A DNA stretch of 12,358 nucleotides from Bdellovibrionota bacterium (GCA_040754655.1 JBFMCE010000104.1:1-12358), one strand, 5' to 3'; positions 1 to 12,197 are shown, numbered from the stretch's first letter. Notes: a model not told the origin generated them from the sequence alone. Program-made: numbers and translations.

Positions 1-604
1 CAACCAGTAACGAGATGGTCAGCCCCATTACTACGGAAATTGAGGATTCGGATACGCCGATAGTCTCTGCCAGTTTCTGAGTAACGGGATCGACCTCCCC
101 CTTCACTTTGGACTCGGTGGACGCGGCTTCGAGTTTGCGCAATTCGTCTCGGAGTTGCTGCGCCCTTTTGGACTGTTCAAGTTCGATATTCAAGGCAGCA
201 CGAACGCGCCTCTCTTTTGCATCTGCCAGTTCTGAGGCAACGACCGACATTGGGCGAGCCTGAATTTCTGACAAGGCAGCCTTTGTGGCGACAATCTGTT
301 TTTCGGTTCCGACCGAAAGTGATGAGTTTTCGGAAAACTGCTGAAGTGCTCGTTCGTTGGAGTGAACCAAGAATGTCAGGTGGCCATAGATGGCGCACAA
401 CAAACATCCAGACCAGACCACCCAACCCACCCACCTTTTAGACATGGATGGAAGCAGGTGGACGGACAGGACGATAATCACGCTGATTGAGGCGAGGAGA
501 GAACGATCCAGCCAATTCCCTCCACGATCCCAAGCCGCCACCCCGGCCATGATGCAAGCAGCCAGGGTGACGAAAGAGGCCAGCAGGATTGCAGCCGTTT
601 TCAC
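1..604 (-). CDS. Membrane protein (3 N-terminal TM helices, coiled coil, further TM); 3'-partial and absent from the supplied ORF track
   Basis: The GTG at 604 overlaps the TGA of 601..825 (GTGA coupling). The frame is open to the window edge: MKTAAILLASFVTLAACIMAGVAAWDRGGNWLDRSLLASISVIIVLSVHLLPSMSKRWVGWVVWSGCLLCAIYGHLTFLVHSNERALQQ...ELEQSKRAQQLRDELRKLEAA...DPVTQKLAETIGVSESSISVVMGLTISLLV. Confidence 0.85.
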   Translation of the reverse strand, partial: MKTAAILLASFVTLAACIMAGVAAWDRGGNWLDRSLLASISVIIVLSVHLLPSMSKRWVGWVVWSGCLLCAIYGHLTFLVHSNERALQQFSENSSLSVGTEKQIVATKAALSEIQARPMSVVASELADAKERRVRAALNIELEQSKRAQQLRDELRKLEAASTESKVKGEVDPVTQKLAETIGVSESSISVVMGLTISLLV

Positions 605-825
605 TGGGTCTCCTTCTCCAGGACGATTGCCGCTTCGGCCAGAGCATCGCCTACCGCCTGTTCAACCTTGGCAGCCTCAGCCGAAAATAGAATGGGGTGT
701 TTGGAGCACAGCTTCGCCACCATCTTCTCGATTTTGGTTCGGTTCTTCAGCGCATCTTCCTCGGCCTTAATCTGAGCAGCCAGTGCAGCTTGCTGCGCTT
801 TCAACTTTTCGAGCTTCTTTGTCAT
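601..825 (-). CDS. Small coiled-coil hypothetical protein, 74 aa
   Basis: AAGGAAA RBS upstream of the ATG, heptad-rich N-terminus (KLEKLKAQQAALAAQIKAEE), and coupling to the next gene. Confidence 0.8.
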   Translation of the reverse strand: MTKKLEKLKAQQAALAAQIKAEEDALKNRTKIEKMVAKLCSKHPILFSAEAAKVEQAVGDALAEAAIVLEKETQ

Positions 826-844
826 TTTCGTGTTTCCTTTCTGG

Positions 845-1276
845 TTAAGATTTGTTTTGAATCAGGAGCAGCTCGGTATCCATCTTCACAGGATGAGAGC
901 AGCTCTCTTGTGGGTACTGGTAGCGCGCAAAATCTCCAGAGAATGAAACCTTCACATCAACCGAACTGCGAACATCCTTGGTTCGATCAAAGGTGCAGTA
1001 GGTTTCCAAGGTCTCGGTGGACGAATTCCACTTTTTGGCGATTGGATCTCCGCCGACCGTTCCGTTTCCAAAATCGAAAGTCTTGCAGGCGACCGCGAGC
1101 GCAGATGCGAGAGCCAGTGCGCGGTCTTGATGAGAGTGAGAGAGGACGATATTTGTACCTTCTTTCGTTGATGCGTACTGGTCGGTTTCACCAGGACACA
1201 GATCCACGGCGGCAGCATGCGCTCCGGCCGAGATGATCAGGGCCAGAATGGTGGACGAGACTTTGAGCTTTTTCAT
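845..1276 (-). CDS. Secreted 4-Cys domain protein, paralogue 3 (143 aa)
   Basis: Sec signal peptide (MKKLKVSSTILALIISAGAHA), AAGGAAA RBS, and motifs DLCPG, SHxxRA, KW, FSGDFARY and CxHPV shared with 2327..2725. Confidence 0.85.
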   Translation of the reverse strand: MKKLKVSSTILALIISAGAHAAAVDLCPGETDQYASTKEGTNIVLSHSHQDRALALASALAVACKTFDFGNGTVGGDPIAKKWNSSTETLETYCTFDRTKDVRSSVDVKVSFSGDFARYQYPQESCSHPVKMDTELLLIQNKS

Positions 1277-1305
1277 GTGACTTTCCTTTTAGCTTGTTTG
1301 GTAAA

Positions 1306-1333
1306 CCCCCTCCTCTGCTATCAAAGGAGGGGG
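1306..1333 (-). terminator. Intergenic GC-rich hairpin (weak terminator or mRNA-stabilising stem)
   Basis: Perfect 9-bp stem CCCCCTCCT/AGGAGGGGG, followed by only TTT on the minus strand. Confidence 0.45.
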
Positions 1334-1343
1334 AGTTGATTTG

Positions 1344-2066
1344 TTAATCGAGGTTGGAGCCTTTTTTGATCAGGTTGTACTCTGCGGAAATCGGAACATG
1401 GTGGACGCAATAATCCGGGAGTCCTGGTGCGTTGTAGCCAAACTTCGGACGCTGAGCTTGGAAGTGGATGAAGTCGCCCTCAAAAGTTATCTTCCTCACC
1501 AAACCATCACGAATCCGCGAAGGGTCAGTTGACGGGACTGCATATTTCAGCCGCCCACCAACGCAAGAAAATTGCATCGATTTTGTTTGCTCGTCCCACT
1601 CCATCTTGAACGTACCAAATCCATTCCAGGATCTGCTTGTTACCGCATAGGCTGCATTGGGCTCTCCTTCGCAGCTTGTCCGGAAATACTCTGCGACATT
1701 TTCCGCCCGAGTTTTCTGAGACTGAGCAAGCACGGCGCGAGTGAACTCACTTCTAGTTGGGTAGAAGTCGCGCTCCGCCTTGCAGGTTTCCTCGATGGGG
1801 GGCGCATAGGAGGATGTATAGTCCTTAACGAAGTCGAGATGCGACCCACCCACTAGGACGCCAATCACTCCGGCAGCAGCCACAACAGGCGTTCCTGCAC
1901 CGGCAGCAATTAAGGCAGCACCACCACCGACCCAGTACCAAGGGTGTTCGCTCGCGCTCTGGCGCATGCTGATTGCGAGATCATCATTACTGGCGCTCGC
2001 TTGCGTAGATGCAGTAGCAGCCAATGCCAGAAGTACCGCTACAGAAACTTTTTTCGCATTTGTCAT
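1344..2066 (-). CDS. Secreted 4-Cys domain protein, paralogue 2, with an extra glycine-zipper-like hydrophobic segment (240 aa)
   Basis: Signal peptide, then WYWVGGGAALIAAGAGTPVVAAAGVIGVLVGG. The C-terminal domain aligns with its neighbours (SQKTRAENVA, FKMEW, FEGDF, CVHHVP). Confidence 0.85.
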   Translation of the reverse strand: MTNAKKVSVAVLLALAATASTQASASNDDLAISMRQSASEHPWYWVGGGAALIAAGAGTPVVAAAGVIGVLVGGSHLDFVKDYTSSYAPPIEETCKAERDFYPTRSEFTRAVLAQSQKTRAENVAEYFRTSCEGEPNAAYAVTSRSWNGFGTFKMEWDEQTKSMQFSCVGGRLKYAVPSTDPSRIRDGLVRKITFEGDFIHFQAQRPKFGYNAPGLPDYCVHHVPISAEYNLIKKGSNLD

Positions 2067-2095
2067 TTCGGATTTCCTTATTCAATTTGCAGACC

Positions 2096-2138
2096 GGCGA
2101 AATTACCAGCCTCGATATTTGTAGGAAGTAGGCGAAAA
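2096..2138 (-). promoter_or_regulatory. 43-bp conserved upstream motif, copy 1
   Basis: The minus strand reads TTTTCGCC-N17-GAGGCTGGTAATTTCGCC, ending about 30 nt before the ATG at 2066. Confidence 0.6.
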
Positions 2139-2160
2139 AAAACCGCCCGAGAGGGGCGGT
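2135..2160 (-). terminator. Rho-independent terminator
   Basis: ACCGCCC/GGGCGGT stem followed by a T run on the minus strand. Confidence 0.8.
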
Positions 2161-2176
2161 CTGGAGGGTTGATTCA

Positions 2177-2260
2177 AGTTTGGCGCTTATTCACCAAGAG
2201 CCGAATTCATACCGGCCTTGGAGCCTCGATCCAGCTTGGTGGTGGTAGATGTCTTGCTCT
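2177..2260 (-). pseudogene. Orphan 3' end of a homologue of the 362-aa gene
   Basis: Translates as KSK*SKTSTTTKLDRGSKAGMNSALGE*, compared with KSKSSEASTSTKLDRGSKAGVNSTPGE* at the end of 2844..3932. Confidence 0.85.
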
Positions 2261-2326
2261 ACTTGGATTTATACAACGCAGCGAGCGAGGCCAGAACACA
2301 GACATTAACTGCGGTTTTATGAAATA

Positions 2327-2725
2327 TCATTTATTTGCATTCAATGTTTTTACCAGCGCGTTTGCTTCCGCAACCATTGGAACTGGGTGGGCGCACTTAC
2401 CCGGATTGGAATATCGAGCGAAGTCACCACTGAAATAGATCTGAATGACATCTTTTTTCCCATCTTTCGTCGAGCAGGTGGTCGTCATCACCTCGTCCGA
2501 TTCGCTCCATTTCATCGAAAACTGTCCCCCCACCTTCTGACAGTATCTGTGAGGCATATCTGCAATGCTTTCAGCTCGCTCTTTGTGACTGACAATAAGT
2601 ACCAACTTGTTGGCCTCTTCGATGCTGGCGTAATGATCTGACTTGCCTGGACACAGATCAGTCGCATTTGAACAGCCAATTGCGGACATCATCAGTACAG
2701 CAAGTGAAGTTTTCTGAATTTTCAT
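2327..2725 (-). CDS. Secreted 4-Cys domain protein, paralogue 1 (132 aa; possible lipoprotein)
   Basis: Start reassigned to the ATG at 2725 (AAGGAAAC RBS; signal MKIQKTSLAVLMMSAIGCSNA). Homologous to 845..1276. Confidence 0.85.
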   Translation of the reverse strand: MKIQKTSLAVLMMSAIGCSNATDLCPGKSDHYASIEEANKLVLIVSHKERAESIADMPHRYCQKVGGQFSMKWSESDEVMTTTCSTKDGKKDVIQIYFSGDFARYSNPGKCAHPVPMVAEANALVKTLNANK

Positions 2726-2754
2726 TTTGGGTTTCCTTTTGGTATTGGAAGACC

Positions 2755-2797
2755 GGCGAATTTTCCGGCCTCGATACATGCATTCGGTAAGCGAAAA
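2755..2797 (-). promoter_or_regulatory. 43-bp conserved upstream motif, copy 2
   Basis: The minus strand reads TTTTCGCT-N17-GAGGCCGGAAAATTCGCC, ending about 30 nt before the ATG at 2725. Confidence 0.6.
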
Positions 2798-2818
2798 AAA
2801 CCGCCCGAGGTGGGCGGT
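2794..2818 (-). terminator. Rho-independent terminator after the 362-aa gene
   Basis: ACCGCCC/GGGCGGT stem plus a T run on the minus strand. Confidence 0.8.
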
Positions 2819-2843
2819 CTGTGACTTGATTCAAGCTGGGCTG

Positions 2844-3932
2844 TCACTCACCTGGCGTTGAGTTTACACCAGCTTTTGAGCCTCGATCCAGCTTGGTGGA
2901 GGTGGATGCCTCACTCGACTTGGACTTGGACAAAGTGGCTGTGTTTTTGCGCTCACGGAATCGCTCATCACTGTCTGACATCCTGGCGGACCTGGAGACG
3001 CTATCGTCCGATGTGCTGGAATTTTCAACCCGATAGCTATCGGACTCAGAACCACTCAGCGAGATTGTAAATGAGCGACCATCGATAGAGTCATCCGAAA
3101 GAGTCTTTCGATTTTTCACGTACATGTCGCGCCCCTTGAATTGGAAAACGGAGCAATCCATGTCGGGTTCTGTGAAATCTTTGTAATCGCCCAACCACTG
3201 AGAGCAATACGCCTGCTGATCCCAGTCATCCCTGGATTGCTGGCGAATCTGAATGAACAGCTCACCGTCGAGATCCATTTGATGGAAGACTTCTTGAATA
3301 ATTTTGACGACTTCCTGCTCGCTCTTTGGAGAAGTCCGATTCGCGAGATCACCTGCATGAGACAACCAGGCACTGGCAGTCATTCGACACTGCGCGTATC
3401 TGCGGATGTACGTGTCATTGGAGTCAACGTACAACACCACTACACCGTCCCCCCTGCTCGCGATCATGCCATTGCCGTTTCCATACATAGCTTCCGTTCT
3501 GCCTGTTACTTTTCCTTGATCGAACGACCATACCGGATAATCACTCAAAGCCGTCGAGATGGGCTTACAGGCTGAGAAATATGCCCCAGCCATACCTTCC
3601 CCTTCGGCAGTCCGTTCGTAGCGTTTAACAAACTGCTGAAGTAGGATTCCGTTGATGTTCAGGCTGACCTCTGACGACTTCGACTTCTCGAATGAACGTC
3701 CACGGCTCTCACTGTTGCTTTCGGTTTGGGACTGCTCATGGGCTCGCTCACGCGATTTTGTGATGGTCTGGCGATCACCTCTGGCTTTATCGGCAGAAAG
3801 AGACTTGTCGCGCTTCATAGAGCTTGTTGATCCGCTCTCAAAGCTTCGGCCTGCATCACTGCCCACCGATGGGTTGGCGGAGGCGCTGGCCGCCACGCTT
3901 GCGCACAGCAGAACTGCGAAAATCTTATTCAT
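2844..3932 (-). CDS. Secreted protein (362 aa) with long Ser/Arg/Glu-rich N- and C-terminal arms around a Cys-containing core
   Basis: Start reassigned to the ATG at 3932 (GAGGAGG RBS; signal MNKIFAVLLCASVAASASA). It overlaps the stop of the upstream gene. Confidence 0.85.
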   Translation of the reverse strand: MNKIFAVLLCASVAASASANPSVGSDAGRSFESGSTSSMKRDKSLSADKARGDRQTITKSRERAHEQSQTESNSESRGRSFEKSKSSEVSLNINGILLQQFVKRYERTAEGEGMAGAYFSACKPISTALSDYPVWSFDQGKVTGRTEAMYGNGNGMIASRGDGVVVLYVDSNDTYIRRYAQCRMTASAWLSHAGDLANRTSPKSEQEVVKIIQEVFHQMDLDGELFIQIRQQSRDDWDQQAYCSQWLGDYKDFTEPDMDCSVFQFKGRDMYVKNRKTLSDDSIDGRSFTISLSGSESDSYRVENSSTSDDSVSRSARMSDSDERFRERKNTATLSKSKSSEASTSTKLDRGSKAGVNSTPGE

Positions 3933-4191
3933 GGATGACCTCCTCTTCTTCGAGTTCGAGTTTTGGTTTGGAGAGCACCTGATCAATCATCAGATCGTAG
4001 TGCTTGTATTTTTGGCGGGTCTCCGGATCAGGTGTCCAAGGAGGCAGGTACGAAAACACATGACACCTGCGGTCACACATCGCATCCACGGGCTCTCCCT
4101 CTATCAAGCAGATGTGCAAGCCTCGTACCGGTACAGGATTTAGGTAAAAGCAGTTCACGCACTTTACTTTTTGGTCTTTTGGGTTCGTCAT
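3925..4191 (-). CDS. Small Cys-rich hypothetical protein, 88 aa (possible metal-binding)
   Basis: CxxC...C...CxxxC pattern, ATGA coupling to the upstream gene, and an acidic tail. Confidence 0.7.
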   Translation of the reverse strand: MTNPKDQKVKCVNCFYLNPVPVRGLHICLIEGEPVDAMCDRRCHVFSYLPPWTPDPETRQKYKHYDLMIDQVLSKPKLELEEEEVIHE

Positions 4192-4550
4192 TTTTGTGGC
4201 TCCTTGTTCTTCAGTTTTGCGAGACGCTCATCCTCTTCTTTGATGGCAGCGCGCATATCAGCGTTGTCCTCGTCGAACAATTGATCGAGGTCATCGCGCT
4301 TGGCCTTGGCAGCGGCAATTTCTCGCTTCAGGGCTTCGTTTGACTTGGAGCGTTCTTCCAGGACCTTTTGGCTTGGACGGCCTCCCCATGCGTCATCAAA
4401 AGATTGATCGAATCGTGCATCTTCAAGCTTTTGGACGGCATGCTGGTGTCGCTGCTCGTTCTTAACCTCTTCGGTTCTCATTTGAGAAAAGAACAAGACA
4501 AGAGCGGCCAGCGGAGCTGTTATTAGCAGTAGTTGGAAAATGCTTTTCAC
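4188..4550 (-). CDS. Membrane-anchored coiled-coil protein, 120 aa
   Basis: AGGAGG RBS, GTG start, N-terminal TM (IFQLLLITAPLAALVLFFS) and a charged helical remainder. Confidence 0.8.
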   Translation of the reverse strand: MKSIFQLLLITAPLAALVLFFSQMRTEEVKNEQRHQHAVQKLEDARFDQSFDDAWGGRPSQKVLEERSKSNEALKREIAAAKAKRDDLDQLFDEDNADMRAAIKEEDERLAKLKNKEPQK

Positions 4551-4572
4551 TTTTGTTCCTCCTAGAAAACAG

Positions 4573-4591
4573 GGGGGGGGATTCCCCCCCC
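4573..4591 (-). terminator. G8/C8 hairpin, putative terminator or attenuator
   Basis: GGGGGGGG-ATT-CCCCCCCC, followed by CTGTTTT on the minus strand. Confidence 0.5.
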
Positions 4592-4609
4592 AACTGGATT
4601 GCGAGTTGT

Positions 4610-5116
4610 CTATCGGATGGACTGCACGAAACCGACCTGGAACAGGCTGTCACCGCCGCCGATCTTGTGTTGGAGTTTGGTGATACCGACTCGCACTTCA
4701 CCACTTCCTGCCGGCATCAACATATCCAAGCCAGCCGCCACACCACCGCGACCGCCAGCCCAGCCGACATGCGGATTCAGGGCGATGCCGTTTCCGCTAG
4801 GCGTGATGAACAGGTTGACTTGACCGACCGGCATCATGCGGCCGTTGTAGGACAGCACACCTGCCTCGACTCCAGACTGGAAAACACCTTTGCCCACCAG
4901 TGGGGCAGCTTCGCTGCGCAACCCTGCCTTAGCAGTCAGATTGAAGGCGTTGCCAACGGTCGAGCCACCACCAGCCCCCAGAATGGCGGAGCTCGAAGTG
5001 GAAGCGTCGGACGAGTAGCTGTTCACACCACCCGATGCGCTGAAGGTGGTATCAGCAAATGCCGAGACGGAGAACAGGGATGCAAAAATGGATGCAACAA
5101 CGATAGATTTCTTCAT
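4610..5116 (-). CDS. Secreted Gly-rich protein, probable small outer-membrane beta-barrel (168 aa)
   Basis: Start reassigned to the ATG at 5116 (AAGGAAC RBS; signal MKKSIVVASIFASLFSVSAFA). Alternating Gly/hydrophobic strands and a terminal strand LFQVGFVQSI. Confidence 0.7.
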   Translation of the reverse strand: MKKSIVVASIFASLFSVSAFADTTFSASGGVNSYSSDASTSSSAILGAGGGSTVGNAFNLTAKAGLRSEAAPLVGKGVFQSGVEAGVLSYNGRMMPVGQVNLFITPSGNGIALNPHVGWAGGRGGVAAGLDMLMPAGSGEVRVGITKLQHKIGGGDSLFQVGFVQSIR

Positions 5117-5147
5117 TTCAAAAGTTCCTTTTTCAAGATTTGGGGTA

Positions 5148-5190
5148 GGCGAAATTGCCGCCCTCACCTCTTGTGTGAGGGGGGCGAAAA
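5148..5190 (-). promoter_or_regulatory. 43-bp conserved upstream motif, copy 3
   Basis: The minus strand reads TTTTCGCC-N17-GAGGGCGGCAATTTCGCC, ending about 30 nt before the ATG at 5116. Confidence 0.6.
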
Positions 5191-5192
5191 TT

Positions 5193-6122
5193 TCACGCGA
5201 CCAACAAATTGAAGAACTCTGTTTTTTGAAGGAAGCCGACGAGTGAGGGACGGAACCTCGGACTCGAACGAGTTAAACCGCATGCCGGATTCTCGAATAG
5301 GAATCGTTCTTCCAGCTCTTTCTGTTGATGGGCAGGAAGGCTTTCGAAACGAGCCCAAACTTCTTCCTGCTGAGTTTTGGCTTTTTCTGCCGACGCCTTG
5401 GCGGCGGCTTCAAGCTCAGCTTGACGCTGATTTTCCCGTTCAACATTGGCTTCGTCCCGAATGCGCCGCATTTCTACTGCAAGGTTCGATACGTAGAGCC
5501 TCTTCCCGTCCGTAGTTATGCGGCGAGCCGCTTCACGGAAATCCTCTTCAGAGTGGACATCAAGCAGCAGCAGCAGCCTTCTTTCGTCCTCCGCGTTCTC
5601 CACAATCGCGCCGTAGCTGCTGCTTCTATTTATTTGATTAAATCCTTTGCTAAAAACATCCTTTGTTAAATTCCCCTCTCCCGCATCCCTGCGCTCCGCA
5701 TCCCTGCGTTCACCATGCCTGCGTTTGGGGGGGATGGAGGTTTTACCGCCACCATCTTGGTTTTCTGAGGAAGTGGCTTCATCTTCCCCACCCTCATTAT
5801 TTTCTGGGGGGCGGGGAACAGAATCCCCTCCAAAGAGAGGAGCATCCGTAAACTCATTCAGCCAGATGAACTTTCCGCCCTCCCCCCTGAATTTAGATTG
5901 GCGAAAGTATCCTGCCTTCATGAGTTCTTTGCGCACCCTGGGCCAAGTCTTATCGGACAAACCGAGCGTTCGAGTGATGTGGCCGATGTGGAATTTCCAA
6001 CCGTTTGGACGACCCAAGACGTAGGCCACAACCTTGAAGGCCCAAGGAGAAAGTTCTTCCGTGAAGAGCTGATCCGGAACGGCAGAAAACGACATTCTCT
6101 TTGAGACGATTGCCTCGATCAT
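5193..6122 (-). CDS. Phage-type replication initiator with an N-terminal winged helix (HTH_36-like), 309 aa
   Basis: GGAGG RBS. The N-terminus FSAVPD..LSPWAFKVVAYVLGRPNGWKF...VRKELMKAGYF...GKF matches my recollection of phage replisome organisers. The low-complexity linker contains DNA repeats. Confidence 0.7.
   Translation of the reverse strand: MIEAIVSKRMSFSAVPDQLFTEELSPWAFKVVAYVLGRPNGWKFHIGHITRTLGLSDKTWPRVRKELMKAGYFRQSKFRGEGGKFIWLNEFTDAPLFGGDSVPRPPENNEGGEDEATSSENQDGGGKTSIPPKRRHGERRDAERRDAGEGNLTKDVFSKGFNQINRSSSYGAIVENAEDERRLLLLLDVHSEEDFREAARRITTDGKRLYVSNLAVEMRRIRDEANVERENQRQAELEAAAKASAEKAKTQQEEVWARFESLPAHQQKELEERFLFENPACGLTRSSPRFRPSLVGFLQKTEFFNLLVA
5626..5725. repeat. Putative replication origin inside the initiator gene: three 15-bp iterons plus an AT-rich tract
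   Basis: CCGCATCCCTGCGCT (5681), CCGCATCCCTGCGTT (5696) and CACCATGCCTGCGTT (5711), next to an AT-rich stretch with ATCCTTTGYTAAA twice (5642, 5658). Confidence 0.65.
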
Positions 6123-6132
6123 CGCCGCCTCC

Positions 6133-6537
6133 TCAAAAAAGTTTCAGTTCGTCTTGAGGACCCGATTTTGATTCTGTGAGGGCCTTCAACTTCATCTGAA
6201 CGCTTCGCTGCGAACAGCCAAGGACTTTCGAGACCGCCGAGGTGCCGCCTTCTCGGAAAACGGCCAGCAACCCCTCAAAAGATGCGGAAAGCTCAGCCAT
6301 CCGCCACCCTTCGATTTCGTCTTCCTCCTGCGCCGGAACAAAGTCGATGAGGGCGGAACCGTCTTCCATTTCGGAGTCAAGGCTTGCGCAACCGCAAGAG
6401 CGGTCGCGGAATCGCGCGAGGCGCGATGCATAGGCGGTCGTGTTGCTGATTTTTTTGCGCCGTTTTGACAGCGACGGATCGTTTTCGAGAAGCCAAAGCT
6501 CGCCAGAGAAGTCGTTGATTTTTTTTTGGTGCCGCAT
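6133..6537 (-). CDS. Small HTH protein resembling sigma-70 regions 3.2-4 (134 aa)
   Basis: Start reassigned to the ATG at 6537 (AAGGAG RBS). ASLDSEMEDGSALIDFV resembles the sigma finger, and TSAVSKVLGCSQRSVQMKLKAL resembles the region 4.2 HTH. Confidence 0.6.
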   Translation of the reverse strand: MRHQKKINDFSGELWLLENDPSLSKRRKKISNTTAYASRLARFRDRSCGCASLDSEMEDGSALIDFVPAQEEDEIEGWRMAELSASFEGLLAVFREGGTSAVSKVLGCSQRSVQMKLKALTESKSGPQDELKLF

Positions 6538-6611
6538 TTCGGAACTCCTTTCTTGAAGCAAAAAAACGAGAAAGAAGTTCCGCCCGGCCGAAACTTTGCA
6601 AAAAATGTTTA

Positions 6612-6856
6612 CGCTCGCGGAGCGCCCCACAAAAAGCGGGGCAACGCGAACGGTTTCTGGGTGACTGCGACGGGAGTCTGTTTTTGAACCAATAGGCTTA
6701 GCGGCCCCCTTGGGATGGGGGGGGGCGTCGCAAGCGACGCCTTGGAAGTTTTGAGGGCGGATTCCGCCTCGGTTGAACCCCTCTTGGAGGGGTAGCGTCG
6801 CAAGAGAAACCTTTTGTTTTTCAGGCCCAGAGTCTTTTGAGTCGGAGGCGGCCGAC
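6612..6856. other. Cluster of GC-rich hairpins in non-coding DNA
   Basis: Stems at 6612-6624, 6624-6642, 6724-6741, 6756-6768, 6777-6793 and 6841-6856. Confidence 0.7.
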
Positions 6857-7523: not shown

Positions 7524-7679
7524 GTGACAATCTACTTGGAAAGATTTCGCCGCTTCGCCAATCGGAGTGGAATTGGCTTCTTCGCGCCAGTCGTGGCCAT
7601 TACCCGGATGATCAGAAAACGGCGCTTCAACTTTCGGGTATCCGGATTATTGGGTGGATTCAGGATGTTGCTTGACTGA
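7524..7679 (+). CDS. Possible small basic protein (51 aa) that reads through the first 24-bp site
   Basis: AAGGAG 8 nt before a GTG; MTIYLERFRRFANRSGIGFFAPVVAITRMIRKRR... No recognised family. Confidence 0.3.
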   Translation: MTIYLERFRRFANRSGIGFFAPVVAITRMIRKRRFNFRVSGLLGGFRMLLD

Positions 7680-7953
7680 AATTTCCTGGTATCTATAATC
7701 ACTTTCGCCTGCCGCTTCGGGCGTAAAAGACACAGAGCATTCCAACCAGCCTTCAGGCAATCGCAGTAGCAAACTCCCAGAACGATCCAAGAACGATTAC
7801 GTCTGCACTTTCTGAGCGCAGCCGCGACCTTTTTTATTGGGGTATCCGGATTAAACGGTGGATGAGCTGATGTACGGTTGCCCAGCTTTCATTTTCAGAC
7901 GACGGATTATCGGGTGGATGAAGATTTTACGGGGATCGGATTATCGTGTGGAT
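7636..7953 (+). repeat. Four direct copies of the 24-bp site (7636-7659, 7840-7863, 7903-7919 partial, 7931-7953)
   Basis: GGGTATCCGGATTATTGGGTGGAT; GGGTATCCGGATTAAACGGTGGAT; CGGATTATCGGGTGGAT; GGGGATCGGATTATCGTGTGGAT. Confidence 0.9.
7672..7699 (+). promoter_or_regulatory. Near-consensus sigma-70 promoter with no ORF directly downstream
   Basis: TTGACT-N16-TATAAT. Confidence 0.65.
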
Positions 7954-8043: not shown

Positions 8044-8298
8044 ATGGAACTCGCTATCAGAAAATTGGGAAACAGCACAGGAATCATTCTGCCGCCGTCA
8101 TTACTTCGCTCAATGCATCTTGCTGTTGGCAACACAATCAATGCTGAACAAGTAAAGGGAAAGCTGGTTCTAACCCCGAACGTGAAGCCCAAATATACGC
8201 TCGCAGAATTGTTGGAGAAATGTGATTCACATGCCGCCGTCCCTCAAGATGTTCAAGAGTGGGATGCCTCTCCAGTGGTCGGAAGGGAAGGCATTTGA
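8044..8298 (+). CDS. chpS: AbrB/MazE-family antitoxin, ChpS-like
   Basis: IRKLGNSTGIILP AbrB motif, YTLAELLEKCD and the W...VGRE tail, as in E. coli ChpS. Confidence 0.9.
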   Translation: MELAIRKLGNSTGIILPPSLLRSMHLAVGNTINAEQVKGKLVLTPNVKPKYTLAELLEKCDSHAAVPQDVQEWDASPVVGREGI

Positions 8299-8639
8299 GT
8301 AAAGTGTTTGAACGGGGCGATATTGTCCGAGTTTGCCTGAATCCGACAGAAGGCAAAGAATTGCAGGGAGATTACCGACCGGCACTCGTTGTCTCTCCCA
8401 GAGTATTCAATGTTCTCGGGTTGACTATGATCGCGCCCATCACTCAGGGCGGAAACTTTTCTCGTTATGGTGGGTTTGCAGTGACTTTGATGGGTAGCGG
8501 TACTGATACTCAAGGCGTAGTTCTCGCAAACATGGTCAGATCAGTAGATTTGCAATCCAGAGGGGCTAAGTTTGTTGAAAAGGCCCCATCATCTCTGGTG
8601 GACGAGGTGTTGGCTCGAATCGCATCAATTTTTGAGTGA
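8295..8639 (+). CDS. chpB: PemK/MazF-family endoribonuclease toxin, ChpB-like (114 aa)
   Basis: The TTG start overlaps the antitoxin stop. RGDIV, RPALVVS and APITQGGNFSRYGGF closely match ChpB. Confidence 0.9.
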   Translation: MSKVFERGDIVRVCLNPTEGKELQGDYRPALVVSPRVFNVLGLTMIAPITQGGNFSRYGGFAVTLMGSGTDTQGVVLANMVRSVDLQSRGAKFVEKAPSSLVDEVLARIASIFE

Positions 8640-8649
8640 GGTCAGGGAC

Positions 8650-8835
8650 ATGAGCACCAAATCAATAATTACCCACATAACTCCTGCTGATGGGAATGTC
8701 TTTGCCGACTTAGGATTCCCGCCAGAAGAAGCTGCGAGATTGAAGGCTGAATCTGATCGTGTCATCTCAAAGGAGCTGGCGCTCAAGAATTCAGCCGAGC
8801 GTATGCAAGCTTTGGAAGAAGACGACAACGAGTAA
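8650..8835 (+). pseudogene. Truncated/chimeric XRE (HigA-type) antitoxin N-terminus without an HTH, copy 1 (61 aa)
   Basis: The motif HITPADGNVFADLGFPPEEA is typical of the N-terminus of XRE antitoxins. No HTH follows. Confidence 0.65.
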
Positions 8836-8953
8836 CAATCAACGCCCCTGCGCATCGTCAGGTGTGAATACCCTTCCACACTGGAGCTGGTTTTCGATTC
8901 AGGCAAGTTCTAACCCAAAGACCGGCTCAATCCACCCGATAATCCGGATACCC
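8674..8953 (+). repeat. Direct repeat, copy 1; near-identical to 9784..10159 apart from a 96-bp indel
   Basis: Offset is 1110 up to 8811 and 1206 thereafter. I count 3 mismatches in the last 143 bp. Confidence 0.95.
8930..8953 (-). repeat. 24-bp site, inverted copy
   Basis: ATCCACCCGATAATCCGGATACCC is the reverse complement of the consensus. Confidence 0.9.
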
Positions 8954-8954
8954 C

Positions 8955-9098
8955 AAATTTGCAGGTCAGATAATGCAATACGACCATAAGCACAGGCACA
9001 TTTCAGACAAGGGAGTGCCATACAAATTCACGAGTTCATATCAACTGCTGAAAGATTTTTTCGATGATGTGGACAAGGTACTGAAGGAGGTGGAGTGA
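8955..9098 (+). pseudogene. 5'-truncated DUF6516/TumE-like toxin remnant
   Basis: KFAGQIMQYDHKHRHISDKGVPYKFTSSYQLLKDFFDDVDKVLKEVE*. The DHxH...PYxF...LLxDF pattern matches the family C-terminus as I recall it. Its stop overlaps the next ATG. Confidence 0.7.
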
Positions 9099-9499: not shown

Positions 9500-9763
9500 A
9501 TGAAAACATCGCGCTATGACGTAGCAGAACATCTTCGCACACCGGAAGAAATGGCGATGTACTTGGATGCTTGCATCGAAGAATCTGACGGCGATCCGGC
9601 TTTCATCGAAAAGGCGCGTATGGATATTGCTCGTGCTCAGGACAATCAACTTATCCTGACTCGGAGAGAGTCATTGCGCTTGCTGGAGTTAATTGAAAAT
9701 CCGCCACTCAGAAATGAAAAATTCCTTCAGGCGATGAGTCTGTATCTAAGGAACAAACAGTGA
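9500..9763 (+). CDS. Chimeric antitoxin: HI1420-type addiction antidote N-terminus fused to a DUF1778/TacA-like C-terminus
   Basis: YDVAEHLRTPEEMAMYLDAC...GDPAFI...DIARA is followed not by an HTH but by LILTRRESLRLLELIENPPLRNEKFLQAM. Confidence 0.7.
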   Translation: MKTSRYDVAEHLRTPEEMAMYLDACIEESDGDPAFIEKARMDIARAQDNQLILTRRESLRLLELIENPPLRNEKFLQAMSLYLRNKQ

Positions 9764-10041
9764 GCTCGAAACCCATCATCAAACACATAACTCCTGCGGG
9801 TGGGAATGTCTTTGCCGACTTAGGATTCCCGCCAGAAGAAGCTGCGGCTCTGAAGGCGGAGTCTGATCGTGTCATCTCAAAGGAGCTGGCGCTCAAGAAT
9901 TCAGCCGAGCGTATGCAAGCTGCGCCGCACCTCTTCACTCAGAAAGAGTGGAATGCCTTGGAGACTTATGACGGTCAAGTTGTATCCGGCGATCCAGAAG
10001 GTCGTGTTCCGGAAAATTTGGAAGCAGACGACAACGAGTAA
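9760..10041 (+). pseudogene. Truncated/chimeric XRE antitoxin N-terminus without an HTH, copy 2 (93 aa)
   Basis: GTGA coupling. Same sequence as copy 1 with 32 extra residues. Confidence 0.65.
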
Positions 10042-10135
10042 CAATCAACGTCCCTGCGCATCGTCAGGTGTGAATGCCCTTCCACACTGGAGCTGGTTTT
10101 CGATTCAGGCAAGTTCTAACCCAAAGACCGGCTCA

Positions 10136-10159
10136 ATCCACCCGATAATCCGGATACCC
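10136..10159 (-). repeat. 24-bp site, inverted copy
   Basis: Identical to 8930-8953. Confidence 0.9.
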
Positions 10160-10269
10160 AGGATTTCTTTTACACCATTTGGCGATCCAAAATCTCCGTA
10201 TGCGCACAGCGCCCAGCCAAATGAAGCCGGCTGAGTTCGTTACTGAAAAATGCCAATAGCCAATTCAGG

Positions 10270-10863: not shown

Positions 10864-10887
10864 ACCTACCGTTTATTTCGGATACCC
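10864..10887 (-). repeat. 24-bp site, degenerate inverted copy
   Basis: The reverse complement GGGTATCCGAAATAAACGGTAGGT matches the 7840 copy at 20/24. TTTCGGGTATCCG is a perfect 13-bp inverted match between 7632-7644 and 10879-10891. Confidence 0.7.
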
Positions 10888-10964
10888 GAAAAATCTTCAC
10901 AAACGATCATTTTTTGATGTTTTCAAATCTCAGAATCGCCTGCTTCGTTCGTTAAGATTGCCTC

Positions 10965-11207
10965 ATGAGTTCAACACAATCTCTAATGAGGTTCCTTACT
11001 AACGCAGAGCTGGCGGAGCTGACTGAGCGCAAGCGCAAAGCAGACCAGATTGCTTGGCTAAAGCGGAATAGCTTCAAGTTTGCCATCGGCGCGAACGGCC
11101 ACCCTCGGGTGCTGCATGATCACGTCCAGGCAAAGCTGTGCGGCGGAATAGTTGAGGCTGCCAATGATGTCATCCCAACTATTGAGCCAAACTGGGCTGC
11201 AATCTAA
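10965..11207 (+). CDS. Excisionase-like protein (DUF4224 family)
   Basis: FLTNAELAELT.RKR...QIAWL...F..GANGHPRV...PNWAA, immediately upstream of the integrase. The start may be the second ATG (MRFLT). Confidence 0.85.
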   Translation: MSSTQSLMRFLTNAELAELTERKRKADQIAWLKRNSFKFAIGANGHPRVLHDHVQAKLCGGIVEAANDVIPTIEPNWAAI

Positions 11208-11216
11208 ACTCGCGCA

Positions 11217-12197
11217 ATGGGCCGCAAAAGAACTATTAACCTCGATCTGCCGCCGCGCATGACAATCAAGGGGAAGTCGTATTATCACGTCTCTACAACC
11301 ATTCCCAGGAAATGGACGAACCTCGGAAAGGACCTCTCGGTTGCCAAAAGACTTTGGGCTGAGCTAGAAGGCGAACTTATTGAGCCTGACATCAAGACCT
11401 TTTCCGGCATTGCGGCCCGATACCGTAAAGAAGTATTTCCAACTAAGGCCCCTCTAACTCAACGCGACAATGAAAGAGAATTGAGTAGGCTTGAATCTGT
11501 ATTTGGTGGCATGCCAATTGATGCTATTAAGCCATTCCACATCAAGCGCTATCTTGTCGAACGGGGAAAAACTGCCAAGGTTCGCGCCAACCGCGAACGC
11601 GCACTCTTCAGTCATGTATTCAACTTCGCAAGGCAGCATGGCTACACTGATGCCACAAACCCATGTGCAGGCGTCAAGGGACACAGGGAAACGGGAAGAG
11701 ACCGTTATGTTGAAGACGATGAGTTTTTAGCTGTGTGGAACAAGGCTGACCAATCCGTTCAAGACGCGATGGACATGGCGCACCTCACAGGCCAGCGTCC
11801 ATCAGACTTACTCAAGATCAACCGCCAAGATATTCGAAACGACGCTCTATTCCTGGAACAGGGAAAGACCGGCAAGAAGTTGCGGATTGAGATTGTGGGC
11901 GAGCTGGAATATCTCATAGAACGCATCCTCAGTCGTTCATACAACTCTAAGGGATGTGATGCACTCCTTCAAAACGGAGAAGGTGAGCGGCTGTCGAAAG
12001 GAACCCTGCGCAGCCGATTCGACAAAGCCAGAAAGACAGCGGGGGTGAGTTTTCAATTCCGCGACATCCGTGCCAAGACTGCCACCGACACAGAGAACCT
12101 TGCTCATGCTCAACGCCTACTCGGCCACAAGACGAGAACTATGACGGAGCACTACACCCGAAACCGAAAAGGCGACAAAGTAAGTCCGCTCAAGTAG
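11217..12197 (+). CDS. int: Phage-type tyrosine integrase, 326 aa
   Basis: Catalytic motifs TGQRPSD (R), QGKTG (K), FRDIR, LLGH and HYTR (Y); the N-terminus MGRKR...LPPRM is typical of this group. Confidence 0.95.
   Translation: MGRKRTINLDLPPRMTIKGKSYYHVSTTIPRKWTNLGKDLSVAKRLWAELEGELIEPDIKTFSGIAARYRKEVFPTKAPLTQRDNERELSRLESVFGGMPIDAIKPFHIKRYLVERGKTAKVRANRERALFSHVFNFARQHGYTDATNPCAGVKGHRETGRDRYVEDDEFLAVWNKADQSVQDAMDMAHLTGQRPSDLLKINRQDIRNDALFLEQGKTGKKLRIEIVGELEYLIERILSRSYNSKGCDALLQNGEGERLSKGTLRSRFDKARKTAGVSFQFRDIRAKTATDTENLAHAQRLLGHKTRTMTEHYTRNRKGDKVSPLK

Follow-up and report, generated by a model that had tools for sequence, protein, structure and literature searches.

The DNA examined here, referred to throughout as the window, is a stretch of 12,358 nt assigned to a Bdellovibrionota bacterium (GCA_040754655.1, JBFMCE010000104.1) that is apparently a complete contig. 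It carries an integrative element with an integrase and an excisionase at its right end. Positions 2-5116 are filled by nine co-directional genes on the minus strand, downstream of a gene for a 309-amino-acid (aa) initiator-like protein (Table 1). A first-pass annotation of the same DNA had described this gene run correctly and had proposed that its products build a minimal machine for DNA transfer or contact killing that spans the cell envelope and lies outside the type IV secretion systems (T4SS). Here we describe what the nine genes encode, how they are arranged and where their relatives occur, and weigh this proposal against other explanations of the module.

Table 1 Features of the nine-gene module and of its context in the window. 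TM, transmembrane segment.
Feature	Position	Strand	Remarks
168-aa Gly-rich secreted protein, from internal ATG	4610..5116	-	signal peptide ends SAFA/DT; mature part 20% Gly
120-aa protein	4188..4550	-	one N-terminal TM, then charged helical/coiled-coil region
88-aa Cys-rich protein (CxxC...C...C, 5 Cys)	3925..4191	-	without signal peptide or TM; overlaps both neighbours
362-aa secreted protein, from ATG	2844..3932	-	signal peptide ASA/NP; Ser/charged-rich arms ~20-90 and 293-362
132-aa paralogue, possible lipoprotein (AIGC)	2327..2725	-	between two terminator-like hairpins
240-aa paralogue	1344..2066	-	signal peptide, 35-aa Gly/Ala-rich hydrophobic stretch (HPW...SH), then 4-Cys domain
143-aa secreted 4-Cys paralogue with signal peptide	845..1276	-	
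74-aa helical/coiled-coil protein, no signal peptide	601..825	-	stop overlaps next gene's start by 4 nt
g201, N-terminal 201 aa, truncated at the window edge	2..604	-	3 TM and coiled coil
G8/C9 terminator-like hairpin with T-rich tail, after 168-aa gene	4570..4592	-	pattern match
Terminator-like hairpin with T-run, after 362-aa gene	2798..2820	-	pattern match; within duplicated unit
Terminator-like hairpin with T-run, after 132-aa gene	2140..2162	-	pattern match; within duplicated unit
Deletion scar: paralogue signal-peptide remnant fused in frame to the 3' end (~31 codons) of a second 362-aa-type gene, internal stop	2172..2330	-	tblastn, DNA alignment
309-aa initiator-like protein	5193..6122	-	weak N-terminal winged-helix similarity; context, outside module
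Excisionase (DUF4224) and phage-type tyrosine integrase	10965..12197	+	right end of element; Pfam, PHROG

As had been stated before, seven of the nine genes carry a signal peptide or transmembrane (TM) segments; these calls come from a hydropathy scan combined with inspection of the sequences by eye. The genes for the 120-, 88- and 362-aa proteins overlap stop to start, as do those for the 74-aa protein and g201, and each of these two sets is probably co-translated. The 168-aa protein had been taken for a probable outer-membrane (OM) beta-barrel, an assignment that the sequence supports only weakly. About 7-8 amphipathic beta segments can be recognized. Of 500 shuffles, 1.2% reached its mean beta-amphipathic moment, but 16% reached its number of amphipathic scan windows, the C-terminus (...VQSIR) contains no aromatic residue and no OM protein family matched, the N-terminal similarity to TIGR04219 being weak (E 0.025). 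The protein is possibly a small OM beta-barrel. No relatives of it were found in Pfam, NCBIfam, PDB sequences or plasmids (tblastn), and it and the 88-aa protein are orphans.

Three terminator-like hairpins on the coding strand divide the nine-gene run into four units. Two of them lie within a ~225-nt unit that is present twice, at 2051-2276 and 2710-2933, with ~75-79% identity between the copies. Each copy runs from the end of the 362-aa coding sequence through the hairpin and a conserved leader into the 5' end of a paralogue. The three hairpins and this duplication indicate that the nine genes are not one operon. The array also contains a deletion scar, in which tblastn aligned residues 332-362 of the 362-aa-type protein P0012 with 2282-2190 (71% identity, E 8e-8) and residues 1-38 of the paralogue P0022 with 2330-2217 (42% identity, E 3e-5), the latter corresponding to a P0005/P0022-like signal peptide. 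From this composition it follows that a second unit of 362-aa gene, terminator and paralogue was once present and has been largely deleted, and the scar thus marks the gene array as dynamic.

The three secreted paralogues noted in the first-pass annotation are indeed related to each other. The 143-aa protein is 41% identical to the 132-aa protein (E 3e-27) and 25% identical to the 240-aa protein (E 4e-9), and four cysteines are invariant across all three. The duplicated unit and the scar mark them as recent tandem cassettes that occupy a site of recombination. Members of the 4-Cys family are very rare: a profile search of 1.84 billion representatives returned 11 matches at E <= 0.001, of which four were the query's own sequences and one, P0009 (1,867 aa, aligned in 7 short stretches), was removed from the family as a likely repeat artefact. 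P0006, P0007 and P0008 share the architecture of the 240-aa paralogue, including the conserved HPW...SH hydrophobic stretch. AlphaFold2 modelled the 4-Cys domain as two helices, a five-stranded sheet and a C-terminal helix, with a pLDDT of up to 95 in the core and a poor N-terminal part.

The 362-aa protein consists of a helix-rich core (~88-295) with four conserved cysteines and two conserved Ser/charged-rich arms flanking it. In the AlphaFold2 model the block from 88 to 295 has a pLDDT of 39-95, mostly above 60, and the arms remain below 40. Nine relatives were found at 36-88% identity, all of them metagenomic. Across this family the sequence of the arms is conserved and includes invariant positions, among them KRDKSLSADK. 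In the 362-aa protein itself both arms show a weak period-2 spacing of Ser and Thr (lag-2 autocorrelation 0.26). A hypervariable patch lies at ~141-180.

How sharply this patch evolves can be seen in a sister element. Co-occurrence of genes on sister elements was deduced from equal reported contig sizes: one contig of 25,264 nt would carry the 362-aa homologue P0013, the paralogues P0002 and P0022 and the g201 homologue P0026, and one of 12,410 nt would carry P0016, P0007 and P0028. P0013 is 100% identical to the 362-aa protein of the window in residues 1-120 and 301-362 and 35% identical in residues 141-180. The best match of the 240-aa paralogue in the 25,264-nt element, P0002, shares 54% identity over the domain, and P0026 (331 aa) is identical to the window's g201 at 199 of 200 positions. 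Divergence between the window and this putative sister element is mosaic and strikingly uneven.

Searches of known families and folds left the module proteins unassigned, in agreement with the earlier annotation. None of the nine passed the curated thresholds of Pfam or NCBIfam, and in PHROGs and PADLOC no E-value was convincing. None matched a T4SS family in Pfam or NCBIfam, and the 12.4-kb window contains no ATPase. Megablast detected no near-identical DNA for positions 1-6700 in genomes of E. coli, in phages or in plasmids. By tblastn the 362-aa protein had no match in 50,697 phage records or in plasmids, and a member of the g201 family had none in the same phage records. Profiles of the 362-aa, paralogue and g201 families returned nothing meaningful among PDB sequences, and Pfam scans of the 362-aa and paralogue families member by member revealed no consistent family. 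With a Foldseek acceptance threshold of E <= 0.001, the 362-aa model had no match in the PDB (best E 2.8) or BFVD (best E 0.44), nor had the 4-Cys paralogue model in the PDB (best E 0.2; type IV pilins appeared at E ~1). In the ESM Atlas the 362-aa protein had no usable feature match and structure TM scores of at most 0.30. Confident matches to T4SS or phage structural proteins were thus found by none of these routes. In the sense of being unmatched in the databases searched, print literature not being searchable by sequence, the module protein families are undescribed.

Several weak candidates were considered and rejected. The similarity of the 120-aa protein to SduA in PADLOC (E 2.7e-4, 18 bits) covers the TM/coiled-coil part and lies outside the nuclease domain; the other module proteins gave no PADLOC match or E > 0.04. 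Matches to DUF333 (E 0.03) and DUF4407 (E 0.005) were under the cut-offs and were not repeated across family members. Two TM/coiled-coil proteins weakly matched Rz-like spanins in PHROGs (E 0.005 and 0.06). We put these matches down to the coiled coils and rejected membership in a lysis cassette, as no endolysin or holin family was matched.

Two profile scans of genome contigs yielded a single related locus, an 11-kb contig of a Nitrosomonadales metagenome-assembled genome (MAG; locus L001). In one of these scans a three-sequence alignment of the paralogue family matched 150 stretches, none of which was confirmed. L001 encodes, in this order, RadC, a RelE/XRE pair, homologues of the 120-aa and 362-aa proteins, a 239-aa secreted protein, a homologue of the 74-aa protein, a ribbon-helix-helix (RHH)-like gene, a TraD/TrwB coupling protein and a TrwC relaxase. 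The 120-aa homologue (3032-3406) is 45% identical to its counterpart (E 1e-25) and is followed after 5 nt, with no 88-aa gene between, by the 362-aa homologue (41% identity). The 74-aa homologue (5346-5651) shares 38% identity (E 9e-10), and the cassette slot before it is filled by the 239-aa secreted protein, which is unrelated to the 4-Cys family. Homologues in conserved order were thus found for three of the nine genes, whereas co-occurrence fails for the other six, including those for the 88-aa protein and g201.

The three-family unit of L001 lies directly upstream of the RHH gene and of the genes for the coupling protein (Pfam TrwB_AAD_bind, E 5e-103) and the relaxase (TrwC, E 4e-73). On that strand the interval from the module genes to those for TraD and TrwC contains no called terminator-like site, and oriT-like inverted repeats were not found in L001. 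The coupling protein is F-type, being 30-33% identical to TraD of Burkholderiales MPF_F/MOBF plasmids, and these plasmids, the closest by TraD, have no such unit upstream of traD. In the closest two (L002 11168-11626 and L003 10995-11450) we observed a thiol:disulfide protein resembling the N-terminal part of DsbD between traD and the relaxase position. Upstream of its three-family unit L001 encodes RadC, two unmatched open reading frames (ORFs) and the RelE/XRE pair at 88-2344, a content that resembles the leading region of conjugative plasmids; RadC is found upstream of traD in pAOVO01 too.

The g201 family is more widespread and comprises 30 clusters of 264-349 aa, including the window's own. 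An alignment of 22 sequences revealed three TM segments, a coiled coil of ~100 aa, a fourth TM segment, a variable Thr/Ser/Pro linker and a conserved C-terminus of ~40 aa that resembles a helix-turn-helix (HTH). By the positive-inside rule the coiled coil is predicted to be periplasmic and the tail cytoplasmic. The first-pass annotation had expected any ATPase to lie left of the window. The cut gene at this edge continues as a 331-aa membrane protein, as judged from P0026, and the family has no ATPase domain and no Pfam match, nor any consistent PHROG (at most 4 of 22 members, E 1.4e-3). Its feature neighbours in the ESM Atlas are mostly viral clusters (scores 0.91-0.93). An FtsK-gamma-like winged helix was considered for the C-terminus and rejected: hhalign placed it in the expected register against E. 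coli FtsK ~1278-1301, but with P = 0.07, and the tail had no such match in Pfam or among PDB sequences. As observations in their own right, the third TM segment (residues ~64-78 of the protein encoded at 2-604) contains W, G, CxxC, Y, H, T and F that are invariant across the 22 sequences, which also share an invariant WDRGG-like loop after the first TM segment. This pattern suggests an intramembrane cofactor, metal or redox site. Conserved Cys quartets also occur in several secreted proteins adjoining g201.

Homologues of g201 were detected in 22 Burkholderiales plasmid records, of which five were inspected. In a prophage on an Ideonella dechloratans megaplasmid (L004 9926-10783; 37% identity, E 2.5e-30) the homologue sits between terS and terL and overlaps each by 4 nt, where a protein with four TM segments and an HTH-like tail would hardly be expected. 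A B. multivorans plasmid has it adjoining parA-parB-repA, in another plasmid it follows two ogr/Delta zinc-finger genes, and in two further plasmids it lies near a PAAR gene and an insertion sequence and near an integrase, respectively. The other families of the window were absent beside g201 in these five loci. The g201 family moves independently of the rest of the module, among prophages, plasmids and islands.

The rest of the window provides the backbone of the element. The integrase (Pfam E 5e-17, PHROG E 5e-43) is 45-48% identical to integrases of temperate phages of Xylella and Burkholderia and is preceded by the DUF4224 excisionase (E 1.4e-10), confirming the integration genes reported before. 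Leftward of these, Pfam and NCBIfam identified XRE and winged-helix regulators, a MazE/ChpB-type toxin-antitoxin (TA) pair and antitoxin-like fragments. Within the TA pair (8044-8639) a MazE/ChpS-like antitoxin overlaps the ChpB-family MazF toxin, which scores 161 bits against the ChpB equivalog (cut-off 129 bits). Two segments of ~160/150 nt in 8651-8960 and 9761-10166 are duplicated at 90-96% identity and yield two alike small ORFs (8572-8835 and 9760-10041), neither of which matches any family. Between the copies a gene at 9500-9763 matches only the N-terminal half of the HI1420-type antitoxin model (E 6.5e-9). The two copies together with this gene look like decayed or duplicated TA remnants.

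A non-coding stretch of 1.4 kb with iteron-like repeats lies upstream of the leftward gene run. Within it a motif of 24-27 nt with the core GGATTATYGGGTGGAT occurs in four direct copies (7633-7953), and three inverted copies are found at 8930-8956, 10136-10159 and 10874-10899, one of them just upstream of xis. These copies could be origin iterons or operator sites of an HTH regulator. The leftward run itself opens with a 165-aa ORF, followed by the initiator-like gene and the nine genes of the module. The N-terminal ~100 residues of the initiator-like protein weakly resemble replication-initiator winged helices in PHROGs (E 3e-3 to 5e-2, with E 5e-3 for the O-like family), and tblastn against phage replication genes gave weak N-terminal matches covering 24-42% of the protein (E 1e-5 to 6e-3). 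The same search gave no match in plasmids, and PDB sequences gave nothing meaningful. Of the phage-like initiator proposed earlier, only this weak N-terminal winged-helix similarity stands. Its low-complexity linker contains two tandem 15-nt repeats (5681-5710) that encode a repeated ERRDA motif; lambda-type origins sit within the linker of the O gene. Scans for Rfam families and tRNA genes gave no hits in the window. Overall, the element is of an already known type, integrative with int/xis, TA genes and a replication-like gene. It is rare, and its host is probably a betaproteobacterium.

We read positions 1-5116 as a set of fast-evolving accessory envelope proteins, probably exclusion or recognition factors, on a conventionally moving element. 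As a whole this is our best but still tentative reading, which falls somewhat short of being probable; one part of it, that the nine proteins are not one machine, is well supported. The region would be a mosaic built from four or more parts, each mobile on its own. One would be a conserved unit of the 120-aa coiled coil anchored in the inner membrane (IM), the 362-aa secreted protein, one or more variable secreted cassettes and the 74-aa cytoplasmic coiled coil. Another would be the cassette slot just after the 362-aa gene, occupied by fast-evolving secreted 4-Cys proteins and expanding or contracting through recombination between the repeated terminator/5' regions. The 4-TM membrane protein with its HTH-like cytoplasmic tail, which would travel among prophages, plasmids and islands, and the orphan Gly-rich secreted or OM protein would complete the mosaic. 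These proteins may act in the envelope of the element-carrying cell as exclusion or recognition factors, either in entry or surface exclusion of related elements or by blocking or recognizing an incoming phage or mating partner, and the 362-aa protein's variable loop would determine specificity together with the exchangeable 4-Cys cassettes. Spread of the element itself would be conventional, through T4SS-dependent mobilisation or conjugation, or with a helper phage.

Localisation signals, paralogy, duplication, scar, hairpins and patchy conservation are direct observations, as is the TraD/TrwC neighbourhood in one relative. Exclusion or recognition is the most economical explanation of four observations: the proteins are located in the envelope, the unit lies upstream of traD/trwC in L001, there is one hypervariable patch, and the secreted cassettes are swappable. 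Several points weigh against it. An exclusion function would be read from position, localisation and variability only. None of the module proteins resembles TraS, TraT, Eex, Sfx, TraN or a defence family in Pfam, NCBIfam, PHROGs or PADLOC, and the TraT, TraS, Eex and TrbK families had no Pfam or NCBIfam match, so that the likeness to known exclusion systems is positional and architectural only. The stop-start overlaps imply that at least some neighbours work together, and conservation of the arms in the 362-aa protein points to a structural role, for which simple exclusion gives no obvious reason. Further, no sigma-70-like promoter was called within the module, the terminator-like hairpins are pattern matches through which transcription may possibly read, the TraD/TrwC neighbourhood is known from a single 11-kb MAG contig, and the element is seen only rightward from within g201, at the left edge of the window.

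Comparison with known systems gives this reading some context. In L001 the unit comes directly ahead of the genes for a TraD-type coupling protein and a MOBF relaxase, the slot that traS and traT occupy in F-like plasmids. Sharp local divergence between otherwise near-identical elements, as between the window and its sister, is likewise a feature shared with exclusion genes. In PMC11493245, Sfx is described as an OM exclusion factor unrelated to known ones, found on IncC plasmids and related integrative mobilizable elements, so that such factors are still being found. The module resembles traS/traT and Sfx in that envelope proteins are encoded on a mobile element. It differs from them in that there is no sequence or fold similarity, more genes are involved, the window contains no T4SS gene and the role is here deduced from sequence.

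Before the envelope genes, the order of parts in the window (int, xis, a replication gene and a TA system) recalls SGI1-type replicative integrative mobilizable elements (PMC7433901, PMC5389848). These combine the same parts with envelope proteins that act on the mating apparatus of the helper. The envelope proteins of SGI1 are recognizable homologues of TraN, TraH and TraG, however, and those of the window are not; moreover, the initiator assignment is weak here and no helper is known. Phage morons, or lysogenic-conversion genes, offer a third likeness: the 132-aa gene lies between two terminator-like hairpins, genes are gained and lost like cassettes, and g201 is scattered over prophage and plasmid backbones. 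On the other hand, no promoter was called, the 120-362-74 unit is multi-gene and syntenic across elements, and the Ideonella g201 homologue is embedded in a packaging operon and not in a free-standing cassette.

The neighbourhood in L001 can also be read from the side of the donor. The conserved unit formed by the 120-aa, 362-aa, cassette and 74-aa proteins would then be a working part of conjugative transfer, either a mating-pair stabilisation adhesin or an accessory set for the relaxosome or coupling protein that works with TraD/TrwC. The unit keeps its order and directly adjoins RHH-TraD-TrwC with no terminator-like site called between, and the 362-aa protein is secreted, contains cysteines and has one hypervariable patch; the tip of the TraN adhesin varies similarly. 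We nevertheless consider this unlikely, since the unit shows no similarity to TraN, TraG, TraH or Tra/Trb families, one locus supports it, the window combines int/xis and an initiator-like gene with no transfer gene in 12.4 kb, and the closest F-type/MOBF plasmids by TraD lack such genes upstream of traD. A phage origin, in which a small prophage or phage satellite would have its late or accessory genes here, for lysis, virion-associated or lysogenic-conversion functions, and its packaging genes leftward, seems to us quite unlikely. It would fit the phage-type integrase with its 45-48% identity to those of temperate phages, the DUF4224 excisionase, the O-like N-terminus of the initiator, the g201 homologue translationally embedded between terS and terL, the mostly viral feature neighbours of g201 and the weak spanin-like matches. 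It agrees less well with the lack of a convincing PHROG match for any of the nine proteins (g201 family included), of endolysin, holin, capsid and terminase families anywhere in the window (Pfam, PHROGs) and of hits in the phage tblastn and BFVD fold searches, and L001 ties the unit to conjugation genes. An integrated filamentous phage is hardly credible. The plan of an inovirus-like structural module matches the layout at first sight, with a replication gene, small signal-peptide/TM proteins, a large secreted low-complexity protein, an integrase and TA genes, as inoviruses are laid out. Yet no pI/Zot or coat family was matched, the ORF lists contain no pI/Zot-type ATPase, secretin or short major-coat-like ORF with fitting signal peptide and TM segment, the expected position of pI holds a non-ATPase membrane protein, no PHROG matched and L001 carries TraD/TrwC instead.

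The machine proposed in the first-pass annotation, a minimal new non-T4SS apparatus built from all nine proteins, must be regarded as improbable. Its parts would cover the IM, the periplasm and possibly the OM, every family is unmatched, and the Ser/charged-rich arms are conserved and show weak period-2 Ser/Thr spacing. Against a single nine-part apparatus speak the hairpins that divide the run, the paralogues as recent cassettes accompanied by a scar, the absence of six of nine families from L001 and the occurrence of g201 alone in unrelated backbones. No energy source was found, and the next protein to the left has no ATPase domain. The suspected link to DNA transfer survives in so far as three of the families adjoin a coupling-protein ATPase and a relaxase in L001, but this ATPase is a TraD/TrwB-type T4SS coupling protein next to a TrwC relaxase, which speaks against a non-T4SS system. 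A bolder variant, which we hold to be very improbable, would place the conserved unit at the centre of a new conduit across the periplasm, in place of a VirB-type channel. The two conserved arms of the 362-aa protein, in which Ser and charged residues alternate, have ~70 residues each and would measure roughly 200 Å when fully extended. Paired arms would form a long beta-ribbon, or oligomers a hydrophilic tube, with the IM-anchored 120-aa coiled coil at one end and an OM partner at the other. The TraD-type coupling protein would feed DNA into it, aided by the membrane-anchored, HTH-tailed g201 where present, and the 4-Cys cassettes would be exchangeable tip or recognition subunits. A TraD/TrwC system with a non-VirB channel would be a major finding, which the present evidence makes unlikely.

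If the exclusion or recognition reading is true, the module would add three to four undescribed families to the few envelope factors known to govern which mobile elements enter a cell. These would be the 'armed' 362-aa secreted protein, the swappable 4-Cys cassettes and the 4-TM HTH-tailed protein common to prophages, plasmids and islands. They are found in environmental Betaproteobacteria, a group in which hardly any work on such systems exists. With its deletion scar and repeated terminator/leader units, the cassette slot is a compact natural example of the shuffling of specificity genes.

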